In this document: positions 1-61,727 of the stretch, in pieces
Layout of the letters: the number at the start of each line of letters is the position of its first letter
Numbering within the stretch: the first letter of the stretch is position 1
Source: a bacterium
GTDB taxonomy: Bacteria > Patescibacteriota > Minisyncoccia > UBA6257 > GWB1-50-10
Assembly: GCA_021824045.1 (NCBI GenBank)
Contig: JAKALR010000001.1
Coordinates: 1-62,730 of the forward strand
Direction of reading: 5' to 3'
Length of the DNA: 62,730 bases
The notes under the pieces: model-generated
Database searches by the model: none
Seen by the model: only the letters and a program-made list of their open reading frames with translations
What the model was told of the DNA's origin: nothing
Translations under genes and position numbers: made by a program

Positions 1-1666
1 GGAGACCTTCATTTTTCGCCCGGAAGTTCGTGAGTTCCCTCGTGCGGCAGGCGTTCACGAGGACATCCCCCGCCTTGGCGTTGATTCCCACCACCATGCC
101 TTCATACGCCTCCATGCCCGATTCCACGAAGAGCTTTCCCCTCCCCTGGGCCGCCACGAGGCCGTAGTTGTTGGTTGTTCCCGTTTCGGTATTCACAATC
201 GAACCGTGGTCGTCGTTCTGAAGTTCTCCTTTGTATTCTTCGTATCCCAGAAAAATACTGTTCATGATGCCGGTTCCCTTGGTCGAGGTCAGAAACCGAT
301 TCCGTATGCCGATGAGGCCCCTCGTCGGAATGGCGAAGTCCATGAAGGTCGTTCCGTTGTCAACGCGCATATCTTTCATGATGCCCAGCCGCTTTCCCAG
401 CATTTCAATAATTGTGCCAGCATACGCTTCCGGAACCTCTATCGAAACGAGTTCGATCGGTTCCAATTTTTTACTGTTCTCTTCTTTGAAGATGACCTGG
501 GGTTTCGAAACTTCGATCTCATATCCCTCGCGCCTCATTTTCTCGATGAGGATCGAAAGATGCAGTTCTCCGCGTCCGGCGACCACCCACCGGTCGAATG
601 AATCGGTCGGGGTGACGGAAAGCGCCACATCGGTTTCCAATTCATGCTCCAAGCGCTCCTTGATGTTCCGCGACGTTGTATACGTTCCATCCTGGCCGGC
701 GAAGGGCGATGTGTTCACGCTGAACGTCATCTTGATGGTCGGTTCGTCGATTGTGATTGTGGGAAGCGCTACGGGGTTTTCGGCGTCGGCGATCGTCTCG
801 CCGATTGAAATGTCCGGAATGCCGGCAACGGCCACGATGTCACCGGCTTCCGCCGTATCGACGTCGATCCGCGCGAGTCCGTCGAAAAGCATAACCGCGC
901 TCAATTGTTCTTTCTTCACCTCCCCGCTCCTCGTGATGTGGGCGATAGTCGATCCTTTCTTGAGCGTTCCGGAATAGAGTCGGCCGATGGCTACCTTGCC
1001 CTTGTAATTGTCATAAACGAGATTCACCGTGAGCATTTGGGTCGGCTTTGAAGAGTCGATCGCGGGAGCGGAGATATAGGAAATAACGTTGTCGAAAATG
1101 GGCTCCACGTTCTTCATTTCGCCGAGATCCGGTTTGAGCCCCGCTTTACCCTGGACGGCCGAGGCGTAGATGACGGGGAATTCTATTTGCTCATCCGTCG
1201 CGCCGAGTTCGATGAAAAGATCGTAGGTTGCGTTCAAAACCCACGCTGGCCGGGCGTCGGGCTTATCAATTTTGTTAATGACAAGGATCACCTTATGACC
1301 CGCTTGGATCGCCTTCCGGAGGACGAATTTGGTTTGTGGCATGGGACCCTCCTTGGCGTCCACGAGGAGCAAGACGCCGTCCACCATGCGCATGATGCGT
1401 TCCACTTCTCCGCCGAAGTCGGCATGGCCGGGCGTGTCGACGATGTTAATCTTTACTCCTTTGTAGTGTACGGACGCGTTTTTTGAAAAGATGGTGATCC
1501 CCCGCTCCCGTTCGAGTTCGTTGGAATCCATAATGAGATCCTGCGACGCATCGCCCTTCATTTTGAAGTTTTCGGATTGCCTCAAGAGCGCGTCGACCAG
1601 AGTCGTTTTCCCGTGGTCAACGTGAGCAATGATGGCTATATTTCTAATGTCCTCTCTTTTTTTCAT
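1..1666 (-). CDS. typA: TypA/BipA translational GTPase (C-terminal end cut by window edge)
   Basis: Not in the ORF track because it runs off the window. Manual translation from the ATG (complement of 1664-1666) gives [48 protein letters not shown] and stays open to base 1. Confidence 0.9.
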
Positions 1667-1739
1667 ATATTTTTGAATTCGCCCGCGTTTTATTTCTTAT
1701 CGGCGACGTAACGCCTTATTGAACCAAAAAAAGCGGCAA

Positions 1740-1768
1740 TTGTCAAAAGATGTCGCATATTGTATGAT
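1740..1768 (+). promoter_or_regulatory. sigma70-like promoter TTGTCA-17-TATGAT ending 6 nt before ATG 1775
   Basis: TTGTCA at 1740-1745, 17-nt spacer, TATGAT at 1763-1768, ATG at 1775. Confidence 0.45.
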
Positions 1769-3603: not shown

Positions 3604-4464
3604 TCAGTAGTCGTTTCCCGAGATAAAATCGATAAAGCTCTGGAGCGGTTTTTTCACGGGCTTCGGGTGATGCGTCGCTCCCCTGATCTCGCGTATATTG
3701 TTCGCCGTTTCATTCACTCCCACTGCGATGATTTCTTTCGCCGCGCTGAAGTCGTCCCAATGATAGTTCAAGACCGGCGGATGGAGCATGAGGCTGGCCT
3801 CCTTGATCCTTTCTTTGGCTACCTGGTATTCCAGCGCCGAAAAAGCGTCGACGATAGTCGATTTGATGCCGGAGAGAGAGAAACGTTCGTCTTCGATGTC
3901 GGGCCACTTGCTCGAGACGTCGACGCCGATGATATATTCGGCGCCCATTCCTTTTACAATGTCCACGGGAACCGGATTCACGAAACCGCCGTCCATGAGA
4001 AGTTTTCCGTCGATTTCGACGGGTGAGAAAGCGATAGGAAGGGCCGAGCTCGCCTTCACGGCTTTTACGAGGCTGCCTTTGCTGATAACCACCTCATCGC
4101 CGTTCTTAACGTCGGTCGCGATGGCCTTGAATGGTATCTTGGTGTTTTTGATGTCTAATCCGTCGATTTTCTCCGCGAGCATTTTTTCGACGGCTTCTTC
4201 ATCCGTGAAGAGCAAACTCTTTTTTCTCCTCAAATGCTTTCGATGGAAAGAATATTTCTCGGCTATTTCGAGGAATGCCCGTTCTATGAAATCGATGTCC
4301 TCCGTCGCGGCGTAGAGGCCGCCGACAAGGGAACCCATTGAGGTGCCGGCCAGGTAGTCGATTTTAAATCCGGCCTTGAGGAGCGTTTTGATGACCCCGA
4401 TGTGGGCAAGCCCCTTGGCTCCCCCGCCCCCGAGCGCTAATCCTATGGTTTTCGGTTTATTCAT
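3604..4464 (-). CDS. patatin-like phospholipase
   Basis: GLALGGGGAKG oxyanion motif, GTSMGS (GXSXG) nucleophile elbow, downstream DGG. Confidence 0.85.
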   Translation of the reverse strand: MNKPKTIGLALGGGGAKGLAHIGVIKTLLKAGFKIDYLAGTSMGSLVGGLYAATEDIDFIERAFLEIAEKYSFHRKHLRRKKSLLFTDEEAVEKMLAEKIDGLDIKNTKIPFKAIATDVKNGDEVVISKGSLVKAVKASSALPIAFSPVEIDGKLLMDGGFVNPVPVDIVKGMGAEYIIGVDVSSKWPDIEDERFSLSGIKSTIVDAFSALEYQVAKERIKEASLMLHPPVLNYHWDDFSAAKEIIAVGVNETANNIREIRGATHHPKPVKKPLQSFIDFISGNDY

Positions 4465-4560: not shown

Positions 4561-7086
4561 TTAATCCTTGAGAACTTTCTTGAGGTACTCGCCGGTGAAA
4601 CTCCCGGCTTTTTTGGCGATGATTTCCGGATTTCCCGCGGCGATCAGCCGGCCGCCTTTTTCCCCTCCCTCGGGGCCGAGATCGATTACCCAGTCGGCGG
4701 TTTTCACGACGTCCAGGTTGTGCTCGATGACGACGATGGTATTCCCCCGTTCGACGAGTTTTTGGAGGACCTCGATGAGTTTCTTGACATCGGCGAAGTG
4801 GAGACCGGTTGTCGGCTCGTCCAAAAGGTAAAGCGTGCGTCTCGTGTCGCGCTTGCCGAGTTCGGCGCCAAGTTTGATCCGCTGTGCTTCTCCGCCGGAA
4901 AGGGTTGTTGCCGACTGTCCGAGTTTCAAGTACCCGAGACCGACCTCATTCAGTATTTTCAATTTGTCCTCAATCCAGGGGATGTCGTCGAAGAACTTCG
5001 TCGCTTCCTCGATGGTCATTTCGAGGACTTCGAAAATGTTCTTTTCCTGGTACTCAACTTCCAGCGTTTCCCGGTCGAATCGCTTTCCTTTGCAGATGTC
5101 GCAGGTTACGTAGACCGTCGGCAGGAAGTGCATTTCGATCGCGATGACGCCGTGACCCTCGCAGTTCTCGCATCGCCCGCCGCGGACGTTGAAGCTGAAC
5201 CGCCCCGGCTTGTATCCCCTCACCCGCGCATCGGGCGTCGAAGCGAAGAGATCGCGGATTGGTCCCCAGGCGCCGACATACGTGGCGGGGTTCGATCTGG
5301 GCGTCCGGCCGATCGGCGATTGGTCGATGTTGATGATACGGTTCAAGTATTCGGTTCCGATGATCTCTTTGCATTGTCCCGTCTTGAAATGCGATCCGTT
5401 GAATTTGTTGGACAAGTTCTTGAAAAGGACGTCGTACACAAGCGTGCTTTTGCCTGATCCGGAAACGCCGGTGACGGCCGTGAACCGGCGGAGCGGGATA
5501 TCGACGTCGAGATTCCTCAGGTTGTTTTCCGTGGCGCCTTTTACTTTCAAGAAGTCGTGGGTTTTCGGGACAGCTCTCCGCGTTTTCGGAATCGCGATGA
5601 ATTCTTCGCCCCGGAGGTAATCCAAGGTCAACGATGTTTGCTTCTTGTCGGAAAAGACCTGGGGAATCGGGCCGTGGGCGACAACTTTCCCGCCGTGGAC
5701 GCCGGCGCCCGGGCCGATGTCGACGAGATAGTCCGACTCGCGGATGGTATCTTCATCATGTTCCACGACGATGATGGTGTTCCCGAGATCGCGGAGGTTT
5801 TTGAGCGTCTGGATGAGTTTCGCGTTGTCTTTCTGGTGGAGACCAATCGTCGGCTCGTCGAGAATGTAGAGGGCTCCCACGAGGCGCGATCCGATCTGGG
5901 AAGCCAGGCGGATCCGCTGCGACTCCCCGCCCGAAAGCGTCCCGGCTTTGCGGTCGAGTGTCAGGTATTCGAGTCCGACGTCAATCATAAATTTCAGACG
6001 ATTCTTAATCTCTTTCATCGGCACTTCGGCGATCATGAGGGAACTCTCGTTTTTCTTGAGTTTCGTTTCGAGTTTTGTGAAAAAATCGAACGAGTTCACG
6101 ATTGAAAAAGCGGTGACCTCGGCGATATTCTTGTCATCGATGAGCACATTTAAGCTTTCCGTCTTGAGCCGTTTCCCGAGGCAGGTCGGACATATTTTTT
6201 CCGACCAGGGATTTTCGACGCCGAGGCCGTGGCAGGTTTCGCAGGCGCCGAAGGGGCTGTTGAACGAAAAGAGCCGCGGTTCGATCTCGGGGAAGGAAAA
6301 GCCGTCCACGGGGCAGGTGTATTTGGCGGAAAGGGATACCTCCTTGTCGGTAATGACGGTCACGACGTCGTTGCCGTATTTCAACCCGTTTTCGATGCTC
6401 TCCGCGAGGCGCAGGCGGTTGTCCTTATTCCGGAAATCGAGGGCCGCGGGGATTCGGTCAATCACGAGATCGATCGAGTGCTGCTTATAACGGCTGAGAT
6501 CGATTCGCTCCCTGAGGCTCGCGTATTTGCCGTCGATCCGGACCTCCGAGAATCCGGCGTTCAGGAAGTCGTAGAGCATTTGGTAGTACTCTCCCTTCCT
6601 GCCGCGGACGACGGGTGCCAAGATCACCATATTCCGTTTTTCCTTCGTTTCTTTGTAAATTTGGATTGCGATGTCGACGATCTCTTCCTGTGTCATCTTC
6701 TTGATCTCGCGGCCGCAGAGCGGGCAGTGCGGGACGCCCACGCGCGCGAAGAGAACGCGGAGGTAGTCGTAGATTTCCGTGATGGTGGCGACCGTCGAGC
6801 GCGGATTCGCGCTGTGGTGTTTCTGATCGATGGAGATGGCCGGCGACAATCCTTCGATTTCATCGACGTCCGGCTTGTCGAGGCTGCCCAAAAACTGCCT
6901 GGCATAGGCCGAAAGGGATTCGATGTATCGCCGCTGTCCTTCGGCGAAGATGGTGTCGAAGGCCAACGACGATTTGCCTGACCCGGAAAGTCCCGTCATG
7001 ACGATCATTTTGTCGCGCGGGATTTCGAGGTTGATATTCTTCAAATTGTGCTCGCGGGCACCTTTGATAATTATTTTATCGGTCAT
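4561..7086 (-). CDS. uvrA: excinuclease ABC subunit A (841 aa, insertion domain absent)
   Basis: Two ABC modules ([18 protein letters not shown]; LSGGE signatures) and zinc CxxC pairs. Confidence 0.95.
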
Positions 7087-11488: not shown

Positions 11489-11512
11489 CGCGCTTCGATT
11501 AATCGAAGCGCG
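11489..11512. repeat. perfect 24-bp palindrome CGCGCTTCGATTAATCGAAGCGCG
   Basis: Centred on the stop codon of the TrpR-like gene. Shares the core GCTTCGATTAATCGAAGC with 11920-11943. Confidence 0.85.
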
Positions 11513-11873
11513 GATTATATGAACAGGAACGGGTAACAGAGAAAATCCGCGAATGACTTTTTTGCTGTTTCTTATTGTTGCTGTATTTTCGGTGAATTCT
11601 CGGTTTTTTCGTAAGGCCGTGCTTCATGAAGCTGATTGTTTCCTGGCTCACGTCGATTCGTCGGCCTATTTCCCGGTAGCTCAATTTTTGTTCGAGGAGT
11701 ATCGGTATTGCGAGACGTTTTTCGAGCATAGTCATTTCACTAGAGGTGAAGAACGCCTGCAGGGTGTTGACGAGTTCCTCGCCGCTCTTGGACTCCTTCA
11801 TGGTATTTCGAAAACGATTCCAGGCTTTCAAGCGCAGATCTTTTGCTAGATATTTTTTACTGACATGTGTCAT
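11499..11873 (-). CDS. TrpR-like YerC/YecD family DNA-binding protein
   Basis: SEMTMLEKRLAIPILLEQKLSYREIGRRIDVSQETIS; paralog of 22406-22696. The track ORF extends into tRNA sequence, so it was trimmed to ATG 11873. Confidence 0.7.
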   Translation of the reverse strand: MTHVSKKYLAKDLRLKAWNRFRNTMKESKSGEELVNTLQAFFTSSEMTMLEKRLAIPILLEQKLSYREIGRRIDVSQETISFMKHGLTKKPRIHRKYSNNKKQQKSHSRIFSVTRSCSYNPRFD

Positions 11874-11900
11874 GGCTCTTGGTAATGCGTCATAGCTCTT

Positions 11901-11917
11901 GGTATTGATAGTATACC
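11901..11917. promoter_or_regulatory. GGTAT..ATACC operator-like inverted repeat overlapping a TATACT -10
   Basis: Minus-sense GGTATACTATCAATACC. Compare GGTATACTATAGTATACC at 22378-22395, upstream of the paralog. Confidence 0.45.
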
Positions 11918-11919
11918 AC

Positions 11920-11943
11920 GCCGCTTCGATTAATCGAAGCGGC
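11920..11943. repeat. perfect 24-bp palindrome GCCGCTTCGATTAATCGAAGCGGC
   Basis: Lies ~50 nt upstream of the TrpR-like start. Same 18-bp core as 11489-11512. Confidence 0.85.
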
Positions 11944-12016
11944 CTCGGATGGATCAAGAAAAAAGAAGAAAGGATTTTCCCGACCCCCCTTTCTATTCCC
12001 GCATCCCCTCCATCAG

Positions 12017-12056
12017 AACGAAAAAGGCCCGACATAAAAGCCGAACCTTTTTCGTT
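12017..12056 (-). terminator. terminator-like hairpin after the tRNA-Gly locus
   Basis: AACGAAAAAGG..CCTTTTTCGTT, an 11-bp stem with T-rich arms. Confidence 0.5.
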
Positions 12057-12059
12057 TTG

Positions 12060-12105
12060 TGCGGAATACGGGAATCGAACCCGTGTCTCAACCTTGCCCC
12101 ACACC
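12060..12105 (-). pseudogene. orphan tRNA 3' half (from anticodon position 36) preceded by GGTGTGGGG
   Basis: Minus-sense GGTGTGGGG-CAAGGTTGAGACACGGGTTCGATTCCCGTATTCCGCA: anticodon-loop 3' side, T-arm and acceptor 3' strand, with no 5' half nearby. Confidence 0.7.
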
Positions 12106-12133
12106 AATCAAGGATTGAAAACTCTTATTCTTG

Positions 12134-12204
12134 TGCGGGTAAGGAGAATCGAACTCCTGTCTCAACCTTGGGAAGGTCGCATTCTACCACTAAACCATAC
12201 CCGC
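12134..12204 (-). tRNA. tRNA-Gly(CCC)
   Basis: Manual fold: GCGGGTA/TACCCGC acceptor, anticodon arm CGACC-TTCCCAA-GGTTG, T-arm AGGAG-TTCGATT-CTCCT. Confidence 0.9.
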
Positions 12205-57583: not shown

Positions 57584-57605
57584 CTACCATCCCGGCAATT
57601 TAGGG

Positions 57606-57689
57606 TGCCCAGGAGAGGATTCGAACCTCCACGTCCTTAACGGACAGCAGCACCTCAAGCTGTAGCGTCTGCCATTTCGCCACCTGGGC
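57606..57689 (-). tRNA. tRNA-Leu(GAG), class II
   Basis: GCCCAGG/CCTGGGC acceptor, anticodon loop TTGAGGT, long variable arm GTCC-GTTA-GGAC, T-arm GGAGG-TTCGAAT-CCTCT. Confidence 0.9.
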
Positions 57690-57691
57690 AT

Positions 57692-58399
57692 TTATAGTTC
57701 CCTTCCGATAATCCTGAGGGCTTTTCCTATCTTTTCCCTCTTTCTTGAAAGACAAACTACGCCTTTATTGTAATATAATTTTGATAATAACTTCAAGGAA
57801 TCGGTCTTGGCGTATTTTAGCTGGTACACTGAATCATTGATGCTCTTGGTGATGTGGCCACGTGCGCCGAACAACTCTTCTATCTTGACTCGTAGCCACT
57901 CAATGTGTACTTTACTAGCCGAAACAAAAGCTGTGTAAAACATAAAACTGGAACGCCATCTCGGATCCCAATAAGAATAAAATGTCCCATCACCGTCGAG
58001 ATGACCTCGGATAAAGTCAGAAAAATATTTTTTGGGGATTTTAATTGCTCCGATTGTCTTTGATTTCGCCGGCGTAAGGCCAATTGTTATAAGAAATTTA
58101 TAAAAATTAACGTCGCCAAATTGGACGTGTGGCGACTGTTTATGAGTAAAGCCGGATGTTTTATAACTGATTTTCACTTGAATGCCAAGGCATTTCATAA
58201 AGTTATCAAGTTGTTCCATATCATTGGATGTGAAATCGATGTGCCGACCATCCGGAGACAAATTTCCATCGGTTGCAAGAAGTCCCATGGCGTAAGCAAA
58301 ATGAGGTGACCACCGAATGGCCACTTTCCCCTGCGGTTTCGTTCCCCTCTTCCCCATCTCACTTTCATTATACCTCAAATAAAAACCCCGCTCGTCCAT
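57692..58399 (-). CDS. LAGLIDADG-family homing endonuclease-like protein, free-standing
   Basis: Two LAGLIDADG motifs (GLLATDGNLS, GHLDGDGTF). The stop codon ends 2 nt before the tRNA-Leu 5' end. Alternative start at 58357. Confidence 0.8.
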   Translation of the reverse strand: MDERGFYLRYNESEMGKRGTKPQGKVAIRWSPHFAYAMGLLATDGNLSPDGRHIDFTSNDMEQLDNFMKCLGIQVKISYKTSGFTHKQSPHVQFGDVNFYKFLITIGLTPAKSKTIGAIKIPKKYFSDFIRGHLDGDGTFYSYWDPRWRSSFMFYTAFVSASKVHIEWLRVKIEELFGARGHITKSINDSVYQLKYAKTDSLKLLSKLYYNKGVVCLSRKREKIGKALRIIGREL

Positions 58400-60879: not shown

Positions 60880-60910
60880 AAATATGCGACCTTTTGAAGT
60901 ATTGATTTTG

Positions 60911-61259
60911 TGGACCTGGGGAGAATCGAACTCCCGGCTCCTCATTGTTCCCGCACTTTCCCGAGCAGGGGCGAGGTTTTAAGTGTGCAATCCCGTACAA
61001 TGTGGACCGTAGCGGATTCGAACCGCTGACCTCCTCATTGCAAATGAGGTGCTCTACCAACTAAGCTAACGGCCCCTTTCTTGAATTTAAGTATAAAAAA
61101 AGCACAGAATTCTCGCAAACCGCCTAGAAATGAGCCGCCACATCGTACGGGACAAAAGCGGTATTCTTCCGGGGCAAAATTACTTATATATAAATCACCG
61201 TAGGTACTTATCCGTTGAAAGCAAAATCGTTTGTTTTCAACCCACTGAACTATAGGCCC
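60911..61259 (-). pseudogene. degenerate tRNA-like shell Y enclosing tRNA-Ala
   Basis: 5' part: GGGCCTATAGTTCAGTGGG, a 74-nt insert, then GAATACCGCTTTTG. Helix TCCCGTAC (61145-61152) pairs with GTACGGGA (60991-60998). 3' part has T-arm GGGAG-TTCGATT-CTCCC and acceptor CAGGTCCA (G3:U70 possible). Confidence 0.55.
61003..61075 (-). tRNA. tRNA-Ala(UGC)
   Basis: GGGCCGT/ACGGTCC with G3:U70, anticodon loop TTTGCAA, T-arm AGCGG-TTCGAAT-CCGCT. Own promoter-like TTGCGA-17-TATACT at 61090-61118. Confidence 0.9.
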
Positions 61260-61271
61260 TCCGTCACATCA

Positions 61272-61550
61272 TGGTGGGCATGGAAGGAATCGAACCTTCG
61301 ACCTCTGTCTTACTTGCCCCGCACCAAAATTGCGCTTTTCATGTCTGTGCGCGTGAATGGAATCGAACCATTGACCTCTGTCTTATCAGGACAGCGTTCT
61401 ACCACTGAACTACACGCGCAATTTTCGGTGCGGGGTCAGGCAGCGTTCTTCCGGGGTGAAAATGCCATATATAACTTAGCATAAGTATTCACCCGTTGAA
61501 AGCAAAGTTTCTTGCTTTCAACCCACTGAACTACATGCCCATTATTTTTC
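61272..61550 (-). pseudogene. interrupted tRNA-Ile(GAU)-like shell X enclosing an intact tRNA-Ile
   Basis: GGGCATG..CATGCCCACCA acceptor pair. 83-nt insert in the D-loop (61449-61531). Insert after anticodon nt 35 is bounded by CCCCGCACCGAAAATTG / CAATTTTGGTGCGGGG. One base is missing in the anticodon stem. Confidence 0.65.
61348..61419 (-). tRNA. tRNA-Ile(GAU)
   Basis: GCGCGTG/CACGCGC acceptor, anticodon arm CTGTC-CTGATAA-GACAG, T-arm AATGG-TTCGATT-CCATT. Confidence 0.9.
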
Positions 61551-61727
61551 ATTTCGAACGAACGAACCAGTCATATCGAAGATATCAGGACAGCATTCTT
61601 CCGGGGCGAAAGCGCTACTCTACTGCATGACTCCTTTTAAGGGGAGTTCGGTGAGACGAAAAAGTGGGTAAAAGACTTGGCCTAAGCGGCCCGGAGCGCA
61701 CACTTTTTCGGCTTGCCGAGCTCCCCC
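61551..61727 (-). other. partial third copy of the tRNA-linked module plus a stem enclosing a terminator-like palindrome
   Basis: Contains ..CGCCCCGGAAGAATGCTGTCCTGATA (Ile-like D-stem/anticodon fragment). Stem GGGGAGCTCGG (61716-61726) pairs with CCGAACTCCCC (61641-61651). Palindrome at 61659-61708. Confidence 0.5.

Follow-up and report, generated by a model that had tools for sequence, protein, structure and literature searches.

The split tRNAs of Nanoarchaeum equitans and Caldivirga are encoded as halves that form the sole source of the tRNA and are joined at a bulge-helix-bulge by the splicing endonuclease. Group I introns in the anticodon loops of bacterial tRNA genes self-splice, restoring the gene, and bacterial miniature inverted-repeat transposable elements (MITEs), such as the Correia elements, are short, non-coding and bounded by imperfect terminal inverted repeats. 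Fragments of tRNA genes derived from integrating elements are well known (PMC9897764), and the passages of that source which cite Williams 2002 and Reiter 1989 concern the partial tRNA copies at attL and attR. For Caldiarchaeum subterraneum, Sugahara et al. 2012 (PMC3293823) put forward a mobile-element model of tRNA-gene disruption, in which they saw a possible path towards split and intron-bearing tRNA genes. Here we analyse an orphan 3′ half of a tRNA-Gly(CCC) gene in 62.7 kb of genome from a member of the Patescibacteria (contig JAKALR010000001.1; the window, meaning the whole stretch of DNA analysed), together with interrupted tRNA-Ile and tRNA-Ala genes about 49 kb away; all of these features are read on the minus strand. 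Very probably, the orphan is the 3′ half of the native tRNA-Gly gene, left behind after a cassette had inserted into the anticodon loop and the 5′ half had been deleted together with the left arm of the cassette. In the following, a complete tRNA gene between inverted-repeat arms inside a broken tRNA gene is termed a nest and the broken outer gene its shell; loci from other genomes carry L numbers.

The initial annotation had described a Gly-type 3′ half beginning at position 36, 37 nt after an intact tRNA-Gly, and sequence and alignment agree on this: the first nucleotide of the orphan aligns with anticodon position 36 of the intact gene (Table 1). The T stem of the orphan is perfect (ACGGG/CCCGT) and its T loop reads TTCGATT. 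Rfam places the intact tRNA-Gly(CCC) at 12204..12134 with 67 bits, and the acceptor strands of this gene match each other (GCGGGTA/TACCCGC). The acceptor strand of the orphan, ATTCCGC, requires GCGGAAT and, as had been pointed out, finds no match in the intact gene, whose 5′ strand is GCGGGTA. Compared with the 3′ half of the intact gene, the orphan is identical at 32/38 positions (gapped) or 30/37 (ungapped, by eye), that is, 81–84 %. Run in permissive mode, Rfam recognizes the T arm of the orphan and nothing more. Five contigs that were assembled independently from other samples are 100 % identical over the orphan stretch, which rules out an assembly artefact. Contigs of this species are present in assemblies including GCA_027423745.1 and GCA_027347265.1, and the species also occurs in samples of the ERZ272375xx series.

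The leader of the orphan had also been claimed to be homologous to the 3′ junction of an interrupted tRNA-Ile shell at 61.3 kb, and an exact 13-mer, GGTG[T/C]GGGGCAAG, confirms it. The 13-mer occurs exactly twice in the window, at 12105..12093 and 61325..61313, in both cases immediately 5′ of a tRNA 3′ half. Since only about 0.004 exact matches are expected (our own arithmetic), its presence at the two junctions rules out chance similarity, and related junctions are found in other genomes as well.

Relatives of the window genome keep the gene order DUF4012–lepA–divIC–tRNA-Gly, the native tRNA-Gly site lying between divIC and the tRNA terminator. At this orthologous site, one tRNA-Gly(CCC) without any interruption is present in L008/L009 (LepA 73 %) and L010 (LepA 78 %); the terminator behind it and the sequence farther downstream are homologous to their counterparts behind the window orphan. 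L006 (LepA 75 %) harbours a full nest: an outer 5′ half, consisting of GCGGAATTGGTTTAGTGGCAGAACGCGACC, an 18-nt hairpin and TTCCCAAG, is followed by a 20-nt left arm (CCGGGTAGTGAAAATGCGAT), a complete inner tRNA-Gly(CCC), a complementary right arm (ATCGCACTTCTACTACCCGG), CAAG and the outer 3′ half. One and the same site is thus seen in an empty, a full and an orphan state. The window orphan is identical to the native 3′ half of L008 at 34/37 positions (92 %). Moreover, the outer 5′ half of L006 and the window orphan together make up a tRNA that is 94 % identical (67/71) to the native gene of L008, and the differences fall in compensated pairs; the intact tRNA-Gly(CCC) of the window shares 89 % identity with this native gene. 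The spacer behind the intact gene occupies the position of the 7–22-nt spacers in the cassettes of L006 and L018 and in the Ile cassette of the window. The matching left arm is absent from the window Gly locus, so that the right arm alone survives there; arms related to it are present in L018, L135, L066, L102 and L258.

From these comparisons, we propose that a cassette devoid of protein genes, composed of a complete tRNA-Gly(CCC) between two imperfect inverted-repeat arms, entered the anticodon loop of the native gene. The latter would thereby have been split into an outer 5′ and an outer 3′ half, and the inner gene would have taken over, presumably supplying the tRNA ever since. CAAG would represent the junction tetranucleotide, as it equals loop positions 36–39. 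Later deletion of the outer 5′ half and the left arm in the window lineage would have left the present order of intact tRNA, spacer, right arm and orphan. Because the native terminator comes directly after the orphan, the orphan lies within the tRNA-Gly transcription unit. Transcripts therefore probably include it in their 3′ trailer, and it would be trimmed off when tRNA-Gly matures and never be joined. One cassette family very probably created both the Gly nest and the Ile and Ala nests at 61 kb, and its presence at both loci accounts for the junction shared by Gly and Ile.

The initial annotation had implied a different origin, namely a split half in the manner of Nanoarchaeum equitans, in which the GGTGTGGGG leader and the CCCCACACC trailer of a separate 5′ half would base-pair for trans-splicing. 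Such a half would explain the high GC content of the leader and its location exactly at the break in the anticodon loop, as well as the undamaged T arm and acceptor strand of the orphan; in the Ile nest, furthermore, the equivalent leader pairs with an upstream CCCCGCACC. However, L006 retains the outer 5′ half and the left arm directly upstream and L008/L010 are uninterrupted, so that the orthologous loci reveal the partner to be a deleted neighbour and no distant gene. The observation that no 5′ partner is nearby holds, as CCCCACACC is absent from both strands of the window. A working tRNA-Gly(CCC) is located 37 nt upstream, and the halves would therefore not be the sole source of this tRNA. 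The junctions of L018, L006, L134 and L040, paired by hand, lack a bulge-helix-bulge (two 3-nt bulges, 4 bp apart); instead, their arms form a long helix beside an asymmetric 7 × 3 nt loop or a single 3-nt bulge, and inspection revealed no hammerhead-like motif either. The host is a bacterium (UvrB, LepA and DivIC, with best matches in Patescibacteria), and the proteins encoded around the locus have bacterial housekeeping roles. In many shells the anticodon stem or the D arm is broken, and the fold of the trailer is unremarkable (z = 0.27). A trans-spliced tRNA half is hence extremely improbable.

Fragments of tRNA genes are common at the borders of integrated elements in prokaryotes (PMC9897764), and an element that carried an integrase and a copy of the tRNA 3′ part, entered tRNA-Gly and was later deleted down to 37 nt would leave precisely an intact tRNA followed by an orphan 3′ part. 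This classical att scenario predicts a hybrid intact gene, but the acceptor strands of the actual gene match each other and the orphan would need another partner. In addition, the identity of 81–84 % between the repeats falls short of the near-identity that is typical of att sites, and integration does not produce the complete inner tRNA together with an outer 5′ half that is seen in L006, L018 and others. None of the genes neighbouring the Gly locus encodes an integrase, and a mere 37 nt separate the intact gene from the fragment. We consider an att remnant very unlikely.

The homology between the window and L006 ends within the last codons of divIC (..ACCAGCACG), which differ between the two. 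This boundary in the 3′ end of divIC could also stem from a single replacement by homology-facilitated illegitimate recombination, in which the divIC 3′ end, tRNA-Gly and right arm were imported from a relative that was already nested, with a homologous join in divIC and an illegitimate join in the native anticodon loop, and the same event replaced the native 5′ half; the window lineage itself would then never have been fully nested. In agreement, the tRNA 5′ end keeps the usual 8–10 nt from the divIC stop codon, and the patchy Ile-Ala states in close relatives, along with mosaic tRNAs, suggest that alleles are frequently exchanged. On the other hand, no donor was identified, a nested donor is still required, so that only the last step changes, and the present data fit simple deletion equally well. 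We regard one-step replacement as unlikely, and continue with insertion followed by deletion. As a separate observation, the homology of L006 to its relatives ends in the T arm of the outer 3′ half (~6575–6640; TTCGATTCT|GGTAGTGCG) and its downstream genes differ, which suggests that the T loop or stem was a second rearrangement breakpoint.

The Ile and Ala loci of the window are nests in their own right. The 5′ half of Ile shell 1 contains a 71-nt insert in the D loop (61520..61450) and breaks after anticodon-loop position 35; with the inserts removed, the shell is 93 % identical to the uninterrupted tRNA-Ile of L257. The arms of the Ile cassette form 16 Watson-Crick pairs with one bulge, and the left arm is identical in L258. 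CAAG is foreign to tRNA-Ile, and the L258 orthologue has CAATTTTGGTGTAGGG CAGG at this junction. The acceptor strand of the 3′ half of the Ile shell is complementary to 61540..61534. In Ala shell 2 the break comes behind the TTTG of the 5′ half (loop position 35), and this shell, freed of its inserts, shares 89 % identity with the uninterrupted tRNA-Ala of L258. Eleven Watson-Crick pairs and one G.T connect the arms of the Ala cassette; a promoter scan placed a promoter-like site (TTGCGA-17-TATACT, 61118..61090) after the left arm, and the inner tRNA-Ala is identical to the stand-alone tRNA-Ala of L257 at 73/73 positions. The second arm-like sequence behind it, GAAAGTGCGGGAAC, resembles the right arms of L135 and of the window Ile cassette, and the stretch containing it is probably debris of an earlier nesting round.

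Table 1. Position of the tRNA-related features at the Gly locus and at the Ile-Ala locus of the window.
Feature	Position	Strand	Basis
tRNA-Gly(CCC), intact; inner (replacement) gene of the proposed former nest	12133..12204	-	ARAGORN 12204..12133
Spacer, 28 nt, from inner tRNA-Gly to right arm, AAGAATAAGAGTTTTCAATCCTTGATT	12106..12132	-	Sequence
GGTGTGGGG, outer end of the right inverted-repeat arm of the cassette	12097..12105	-	13-mer common to Ile cassette
Orphan 3′ half CAAGGTTGAGACACGGGTTCGATTCCCGTATTCCGCA, 37 nt, tRNA-Gly(CCC) positions 36-76	12060..12096	-	Alignment to intact gene
Terminator of the native tRNA-Gly unit, hairpin and T run	12016..12055, stem 12042..12026	-	Terminator scan
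Outermost Ile shell remnant (end of D-loop insert, AGAATGCTGTCCTGATA) and left arm 61582..61541; third nesting level	61541..61612	-	Homologous to shell and left arm of L256 nest
Ile shell 1, 5′ half, GGGCATGTAGTTCAGTGGGT ... AGAACGCTGCCTGA, GGGCATG-type	61436..61540	-	Sequence
Ile cassette, left arm CCCCGCACCGAAAATT	61420..61435	-	Pairs with 61332..61317
Inner intact tRNA-Ile(GAT)	61347..61419	-	ARAGORN; Rfam 76 bits
Ile cassette, right arm CAATTTTGGTGCGGGG and CAAG	61313..61332	-	Sequence, 13-mer, arm pairing
Ile shell 1, 3′ half, TAAGACAG ... CATGCCCA CCA	61272..61312	-	Rfam 28.9 bits, slightly below threshold
Ala shell 2, 5′ half, with paralogous D-loop insert 61239..61168	61153..61259	-	74 % identity to shell 1 5′ region including insert and arm
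Ala cassette, left arm TCCCGTACGATG	61141..61152	-	Pairs with 61002..60991
Inner intact tRNA-Ala(TGC)	61002..61075	-	ARAGORN; Rfam 73 bits
Ala cassette, right arm CATTGTACGGGA, starting at the last base of tRNA-Ala	61002..60991	-	Arm pairing
Intervening remnant (TTGCA ...) with second arm-like sequence GAAAGTGCGGGAAC	60948..60990	-	Sequence
Ala shell 2, 3′ half CAATGAGGAGCCGGGAGTTCGATTCTCCCCAGGTCCA	60911..60947	-	T-arm scan; matches 3′ half of L258 tRNA-Ala

Relatives of the Ile-Ala locus, located via the nearby RluA gene, differ in state. Both genes are clean in L257 (RluA 77 %) and in L259 (RluA 86 %), where the contig begins inside the tRNA-Ile gene. L258 (RluA 76 %) has the Ile nest as in the window, with the identical left arm, and an uninterrupted tRNA-Ala that equals the Ala shell of the window. 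In L256 (RluA 79 %) tRNA-Ala is clean and the Ile locus carries the other allele as shell with a GGGCATA-type gene inside. The arm of this nest matches the outermost Ile remnant of the window, and the converse Ile nest of L256 explains this remnant, the third nesting level. Complete tRNA genes with inverted-repeat arms have been inserted into cognate anticodon loops in repeated rounds, up to three levels deep.

Further sequences accompany the two nests. A D-loop insert of ~71 nt is found at the same position in the Ile and Ala shells (61450-61520 and 61168-61239), and a truncated copy ends at 61601. It is built from a hairpin (TTGAAAGCAAG..CTTTGCTTTCAA), an AT-rich stretch and CCCCGGA, is ~80 % conserved between the window and L258, and has a copy in L256 too. 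It could represent a second small mobile sequence, a product of gene conversion between adjacent shells or a promoter module. After a 70-aa open reading frame (ORF) upstream of the Ile nest follows a long GC-rich hairpin, GGGGGAGCTCGGCAAGCCGAAAAAGTG ... CACTTTTTCGTCTCACCGAACTCCCC (~61641-61727, minus strand), which is conserved in L256 and absent in L257 and L258. A LAGLIDADG-type, homing-endonuclease-like ORF (57692-58399, minus strand; Pfam LAGLIDADG_3, 23.1 bits, barely over the cut-off) lies between the rplS terminator and tRNA-Leu(GAG) at 57603-57690 and ends 2 nt before the latter. This insertion is also present in L256 and missing from L257; a search around the LAGLIDADG gene for a tRNA-Leu orphan found none.

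With introns allowed, ARAGORN miscalls the 5′ half of the intact tRNA-Gly and the orphan as one tRNA with a 74-nt intron. The program fuses working tRNA 5′ halves to downstream orphans at all three loci (12059-12204, 61272-61419 and 60910-61076), with ‘introns’ of 73-93 nt, and such fusions are likely to be a source of wrong annotations in nest-bearing genomes.

The design recurs in many genomes. Scanning species-representative genomes for the 3′ half type of this tRNA-Gly returned at least 120 loci, and a metagenome scan for the junction contributed five more. Among the matches listed, roughly 9 of 120 genome loci are in the nested or orphan state, and about a dozen further loci (Gly, Thr, Pro and Val) share the nest design. 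Nests are present in L018, where both outer halves are still perfect, as well as in L019, L026, L067, L040, L066/L132, L102, L134 (Gly and Thr) and L135. L129 contains a lone orphan; in L091 an orphan follows a presumed tRNA-Val, a gene that is cut by the contig end and receives no ARAGORN call. In three genomes that are related to each other, a conserved orphan 5′ half of tRNA-Pro(TGG) lies ~65 nt upstream of an intact tRNA-Pro: in L034 (5706-5882) and L075 (1473-1648), both labelled Saccharibacteria, and in L081 (195-370), labelled Paceibacterota. These Pro orphans break after loop position 35 and continue with CAAG or CAAA and a hairpin, and promoter-like sequence is located upstream of them. 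Their arrangement mirrors the Gly locus of the window, and either half of a shell is thus lost in one locus or another.

Two of these loci deserve separate mention. In L134 (~3700-3960, minus strand), a tRNA-Thr(CGT) sits inside a shell of Thr(TGT)-like type. Here the break spares the anticodon loop and separates the D arm from the anticodon arm, and the T loop of the shell holds a hairpin insert. The Gly nests of L134 (~4064-4220, minus strand) and L040 (~1583-1745, plus strand) have near-identical arms and junctions in unrelated contexts: in L134 a type-A tRNA-Gly shell holds a type-B gene, and in L040 a type-B shell holds type A. Arms are likewise paired with swapped shell and cargo in L256 compared with the window and L258.

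Across all nests, the inner gene is cognate, that is, it and its shell serve the same amino acid. The left break falls mostly after loop position 35 or 39, and the right flank restarts at 35 or 36. At the junctions 0-5 nt are repeated: CAAG or CCAAG in L006, L018 and L135, TTG in the Ala nest of the window, ATA in L256, and none in L134, L040 and the Ile nest of the window. Overlaps of such different lengths speak against a transposase that cuts with a fixed stagger. CAAG is native to tRNA-Gly, yet it is present at Ile and Pro junctions.

Each pair of arms forms an imperfect inverted repeat, 9-36 nt long; in 16 arm pairs, 225 Watson-Crick positions compare with 41 mismatches and 11 gaps. As RNAduplex with shuffled controls proved uninformative on long flanks, real tRNA flanks were used as the control: the duplex of leader and trailer has a median of -16.6 kcal/mol for nested genes and -9.8 kcal/mol for 243 other tRNAs from the same loci (Mann-Whitney p = 7e-5). 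A subset of arms is homologous, with the left arm reading [C/T]CCCG[C/T]AC and the right arm GT[A/G]CGGG[A/G]; it comprises the Ile and Ala cassettes of the window and the Gly cassettes of L018, L102, L066 and L135, and the window Gly cassette has the related right arm only (GTGTGGGG). Arms of the CCCCGCACC kind, which resemble the 3′ end of tRNA-Gly plus CCA, are found in the window, L258 and L018. No copies of the arms were detected outside tRNA loci in ~1 Mb of fetched sequence, nor beside a transposase in the fetched loci.

Several further candidates were set aside. With 12 G.T-type and 8 A.C-type mismatches, the arms display no clear bias and thus no signature of an RNA helix. Pairing of the right arm as a replacement 5′ acceptor strand is partial and inconsistent between loci, and the arm and orphan together do not form a specially stable fold, as judged from the z value given above. 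Rfam returned no intron family for the window at the gathering threshold or for either locus at E <= 1, which excludes a group I intron, and scans of viral contigs for a phage origin gave chance 15-mer matches or nothing. Models invoking a circular intermediate, Xer/dif-like recombination, integron-like hairpins, IS200/IS605-type transposition or reverse transcription were considered too, and none accounts for all junctions.

Extra hairpins are frequent in shells, whether close to the break or within the D or T loop, and some shells are plainly broken (L006 in the acceptor, L134 in the D arm and L040 in the T arm). Nevertheless, orthologous pairs reveal shell halves about as conserved as the working inner tRNA. 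Between L026 and L067, the outer 5′ halves agree at 23/24 positions and the outer 3′ halves at 34/38, including a compensated T-stem pair, with flanks at 43-48 %; between the window and L258, 11 % of positions differ in the shell and 17 % in the inner tRNA. The acceptor strands of the shells stay complementary and co-vary between lineages. It should be kept in mind that the search patterns required exact matches, which accounts for part of the 3′-half conservation. Selection might keep orphans and shell halves, be it as a structured trailer or scaffold for processing of the inner tRNA or as homology arms for spread, and the window orphan, free of damaging changes, would suit this notion. Yet no acceptor stem can form at the window Gly locus because the 5′ strand is gone, the stability of the trailer is ordinary, the broken shells are difficult to reconcile with selection, and refreshment by recombination with intact alleles would look no different, with no RNA function involved. 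Retention by selection accordingly has only a small chance of being correct. As the putative route of spread we favour homologous recombination between genomes through the shell halves, which would explain the patchy distribution in close relatives and the mosaic tRNAs, as well as the pristine, co-varying acceptor strands of shells and the concentration of decay near the break.

Some observations weigh against a native 3′ half left over after insertion and deletion. An intermediate with the 5′ half still in place was not found in the window species, and since the nearest relatives share only 73-78 % LepA identity, the deletion is a step that we infer. The orphan itself is free of any decay, with its perfect T arm and consensus T loop, and a purely inert relic accounts poorly for shell halves that are conserved next to flanks at random level. 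Junction overlaps of 0-5 nt, combined with arms that differ between cassettes, do not suit any one insertion chemistry, and in L134 and L040 near-identical arms are found with cargo and shell exchanged. A distant 5′ half beyond the 62.7 kb read is formally conceivable but improbable.

The genes surrounding the Gly locus encode UvrB, a pyruvoyl arginine decarboxylase, an NTPase, a TrpR/YerC-like protein, DivIC, LepA and a DUF4012 protein; the named relatives of LepA belong to Patescibacteria (Minisyncoccia, Paceibacteria and Jorgensenbacteria) and are 60-78 % identical. The TrpR/YerC-like gene (11499-12107, minus strand) is given as 178 aa in public records and as 202 aa for the raw ORF. Both versions extend across the terminator, and that of 202 aa also takes in the orphan and the right arm. 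The longer starts are probably over-extensions, because the Pfam Trp_repressor match fits within a 124-aa version that starts at the ATG at 11873. Beyond the terminator and oriented toward the orphan lies a decayed tRNA-like 3′ end, CCCGACCCCCCTTTCTATTCCCGCA (~11978-12005, plus strand). Homologous relics follow the intact tRNA-Gly in L008 and L010, and L102 and L132 have a better kept, convergent T arm at the same position. A permuted tRNA, with GCGGGAATAG on the 3′ side of the terminator as its 5′ half, was rejected: GCGGGAATAG is a decayed, inverted tRNA-like relic that is present in relatives with an intact gene.

The full-text literature searched contains no description of nested cognate tRNA genes without a protein gene in bacteria. 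We tentatively suggest that Patescibacteria may carry an undescribed selfish or quasi-selfish cassette without proteins, namely a complete tRNA gene between inverted-repeat arms that would enter the anticodon loop of its cognate gene and compensate for the damage with its own copy, an ‘intron that does not need to splice’; this generalization is more doubtful than the origin of the orphan itself. If true, nests can stack at least three deep and either allele can replace the other, while the old halves stay intact as recombination arms for spread in natural transformation or as an RNA scaffold. Nests would then display, in living bacteria, the path by which split and intron-bearing tRNA genes are proposed to have arisen, and cassettes that are actively mobile would constitute a new minimal mobile element whose sole cargo is the gene it destroys. 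In any case, empty, full and decayed states side by side illustrate how a tRNA gene can be broken in the anticodon loop and replaced with its function kept. Models of how split and intron-bearing tRNAs originated assume such a step, which is rarely observed; here it is seen in bacteria and not in archaea. In the tiny genomes of Patescibacteria, single-copy tRNA genes are supposed to be static, yet they appear to turn over as one allele replaces another. For annotation, the consequences are false ‘intron-containing’ tRNAs, missed tRNAs and over-extended protein calls.

The nests share features with each of the systems described above and coincide with none. Like att fragments, they target tRNA genes, break them in the anticodon loop, which is one of the classical crossover sites, and leave a partial copy that misleads annotation tools. 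In contrast to these, the inserted unit measures ~110-170 bp, encodes no integrase or other protein and carries a whole tRNA; nests keep both old halves, have inverted instead of direct repeats, and their partial copy is not identical to the intact gene. The Caldiarchaeum loci are alike in that a single tRNA locus varies between lineages or populations, a fragment sits beside an intact gene for the same amino acid, and insertion plus recombination offers the explanation. They are archaeal, however, with 1.8 kb of intervening DNA encoding a recombinase and with intact genes that contain spliceable introns (PMC3293823), whereas the nests are bacterial, have an insert without a protein gene and display no sign of splicing.

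With the split tRNAs of Nanoarchaeum and Caldivirga, the nests have in common the anticodon-loop break, GC-rich complementary flanks and intact acceptor and T arms; they differ in that the same tRNA is also encoded by a complete gene, placed between the halves or next to them, in that no bulge-helix-bulge forms and in that many halves are damaged. MITEs resemble the cassettes in their terminal inverted repeats, in short duplications at some junctions and in several related copies within and across genomes, here the 13-mer of Gly and Ile, the arms of L134 and L040 and the CCCCGCACC arms, which recur at different sites and in different genomes. Unlike MITEs, the cassettes carry a functional gene and are confined to tRNA genes of their own amino acid, their junction duplication varies from 0 to 5 nt, their arms differ widely between copies, and they are not known to have a partner transposase. 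Finally, group I introns are likewise mobile insertions in the anticodon loop of a bacterial tRNA gene that keep up the tRNA supply, but in the nests function is restored by a second gene inside the insert.

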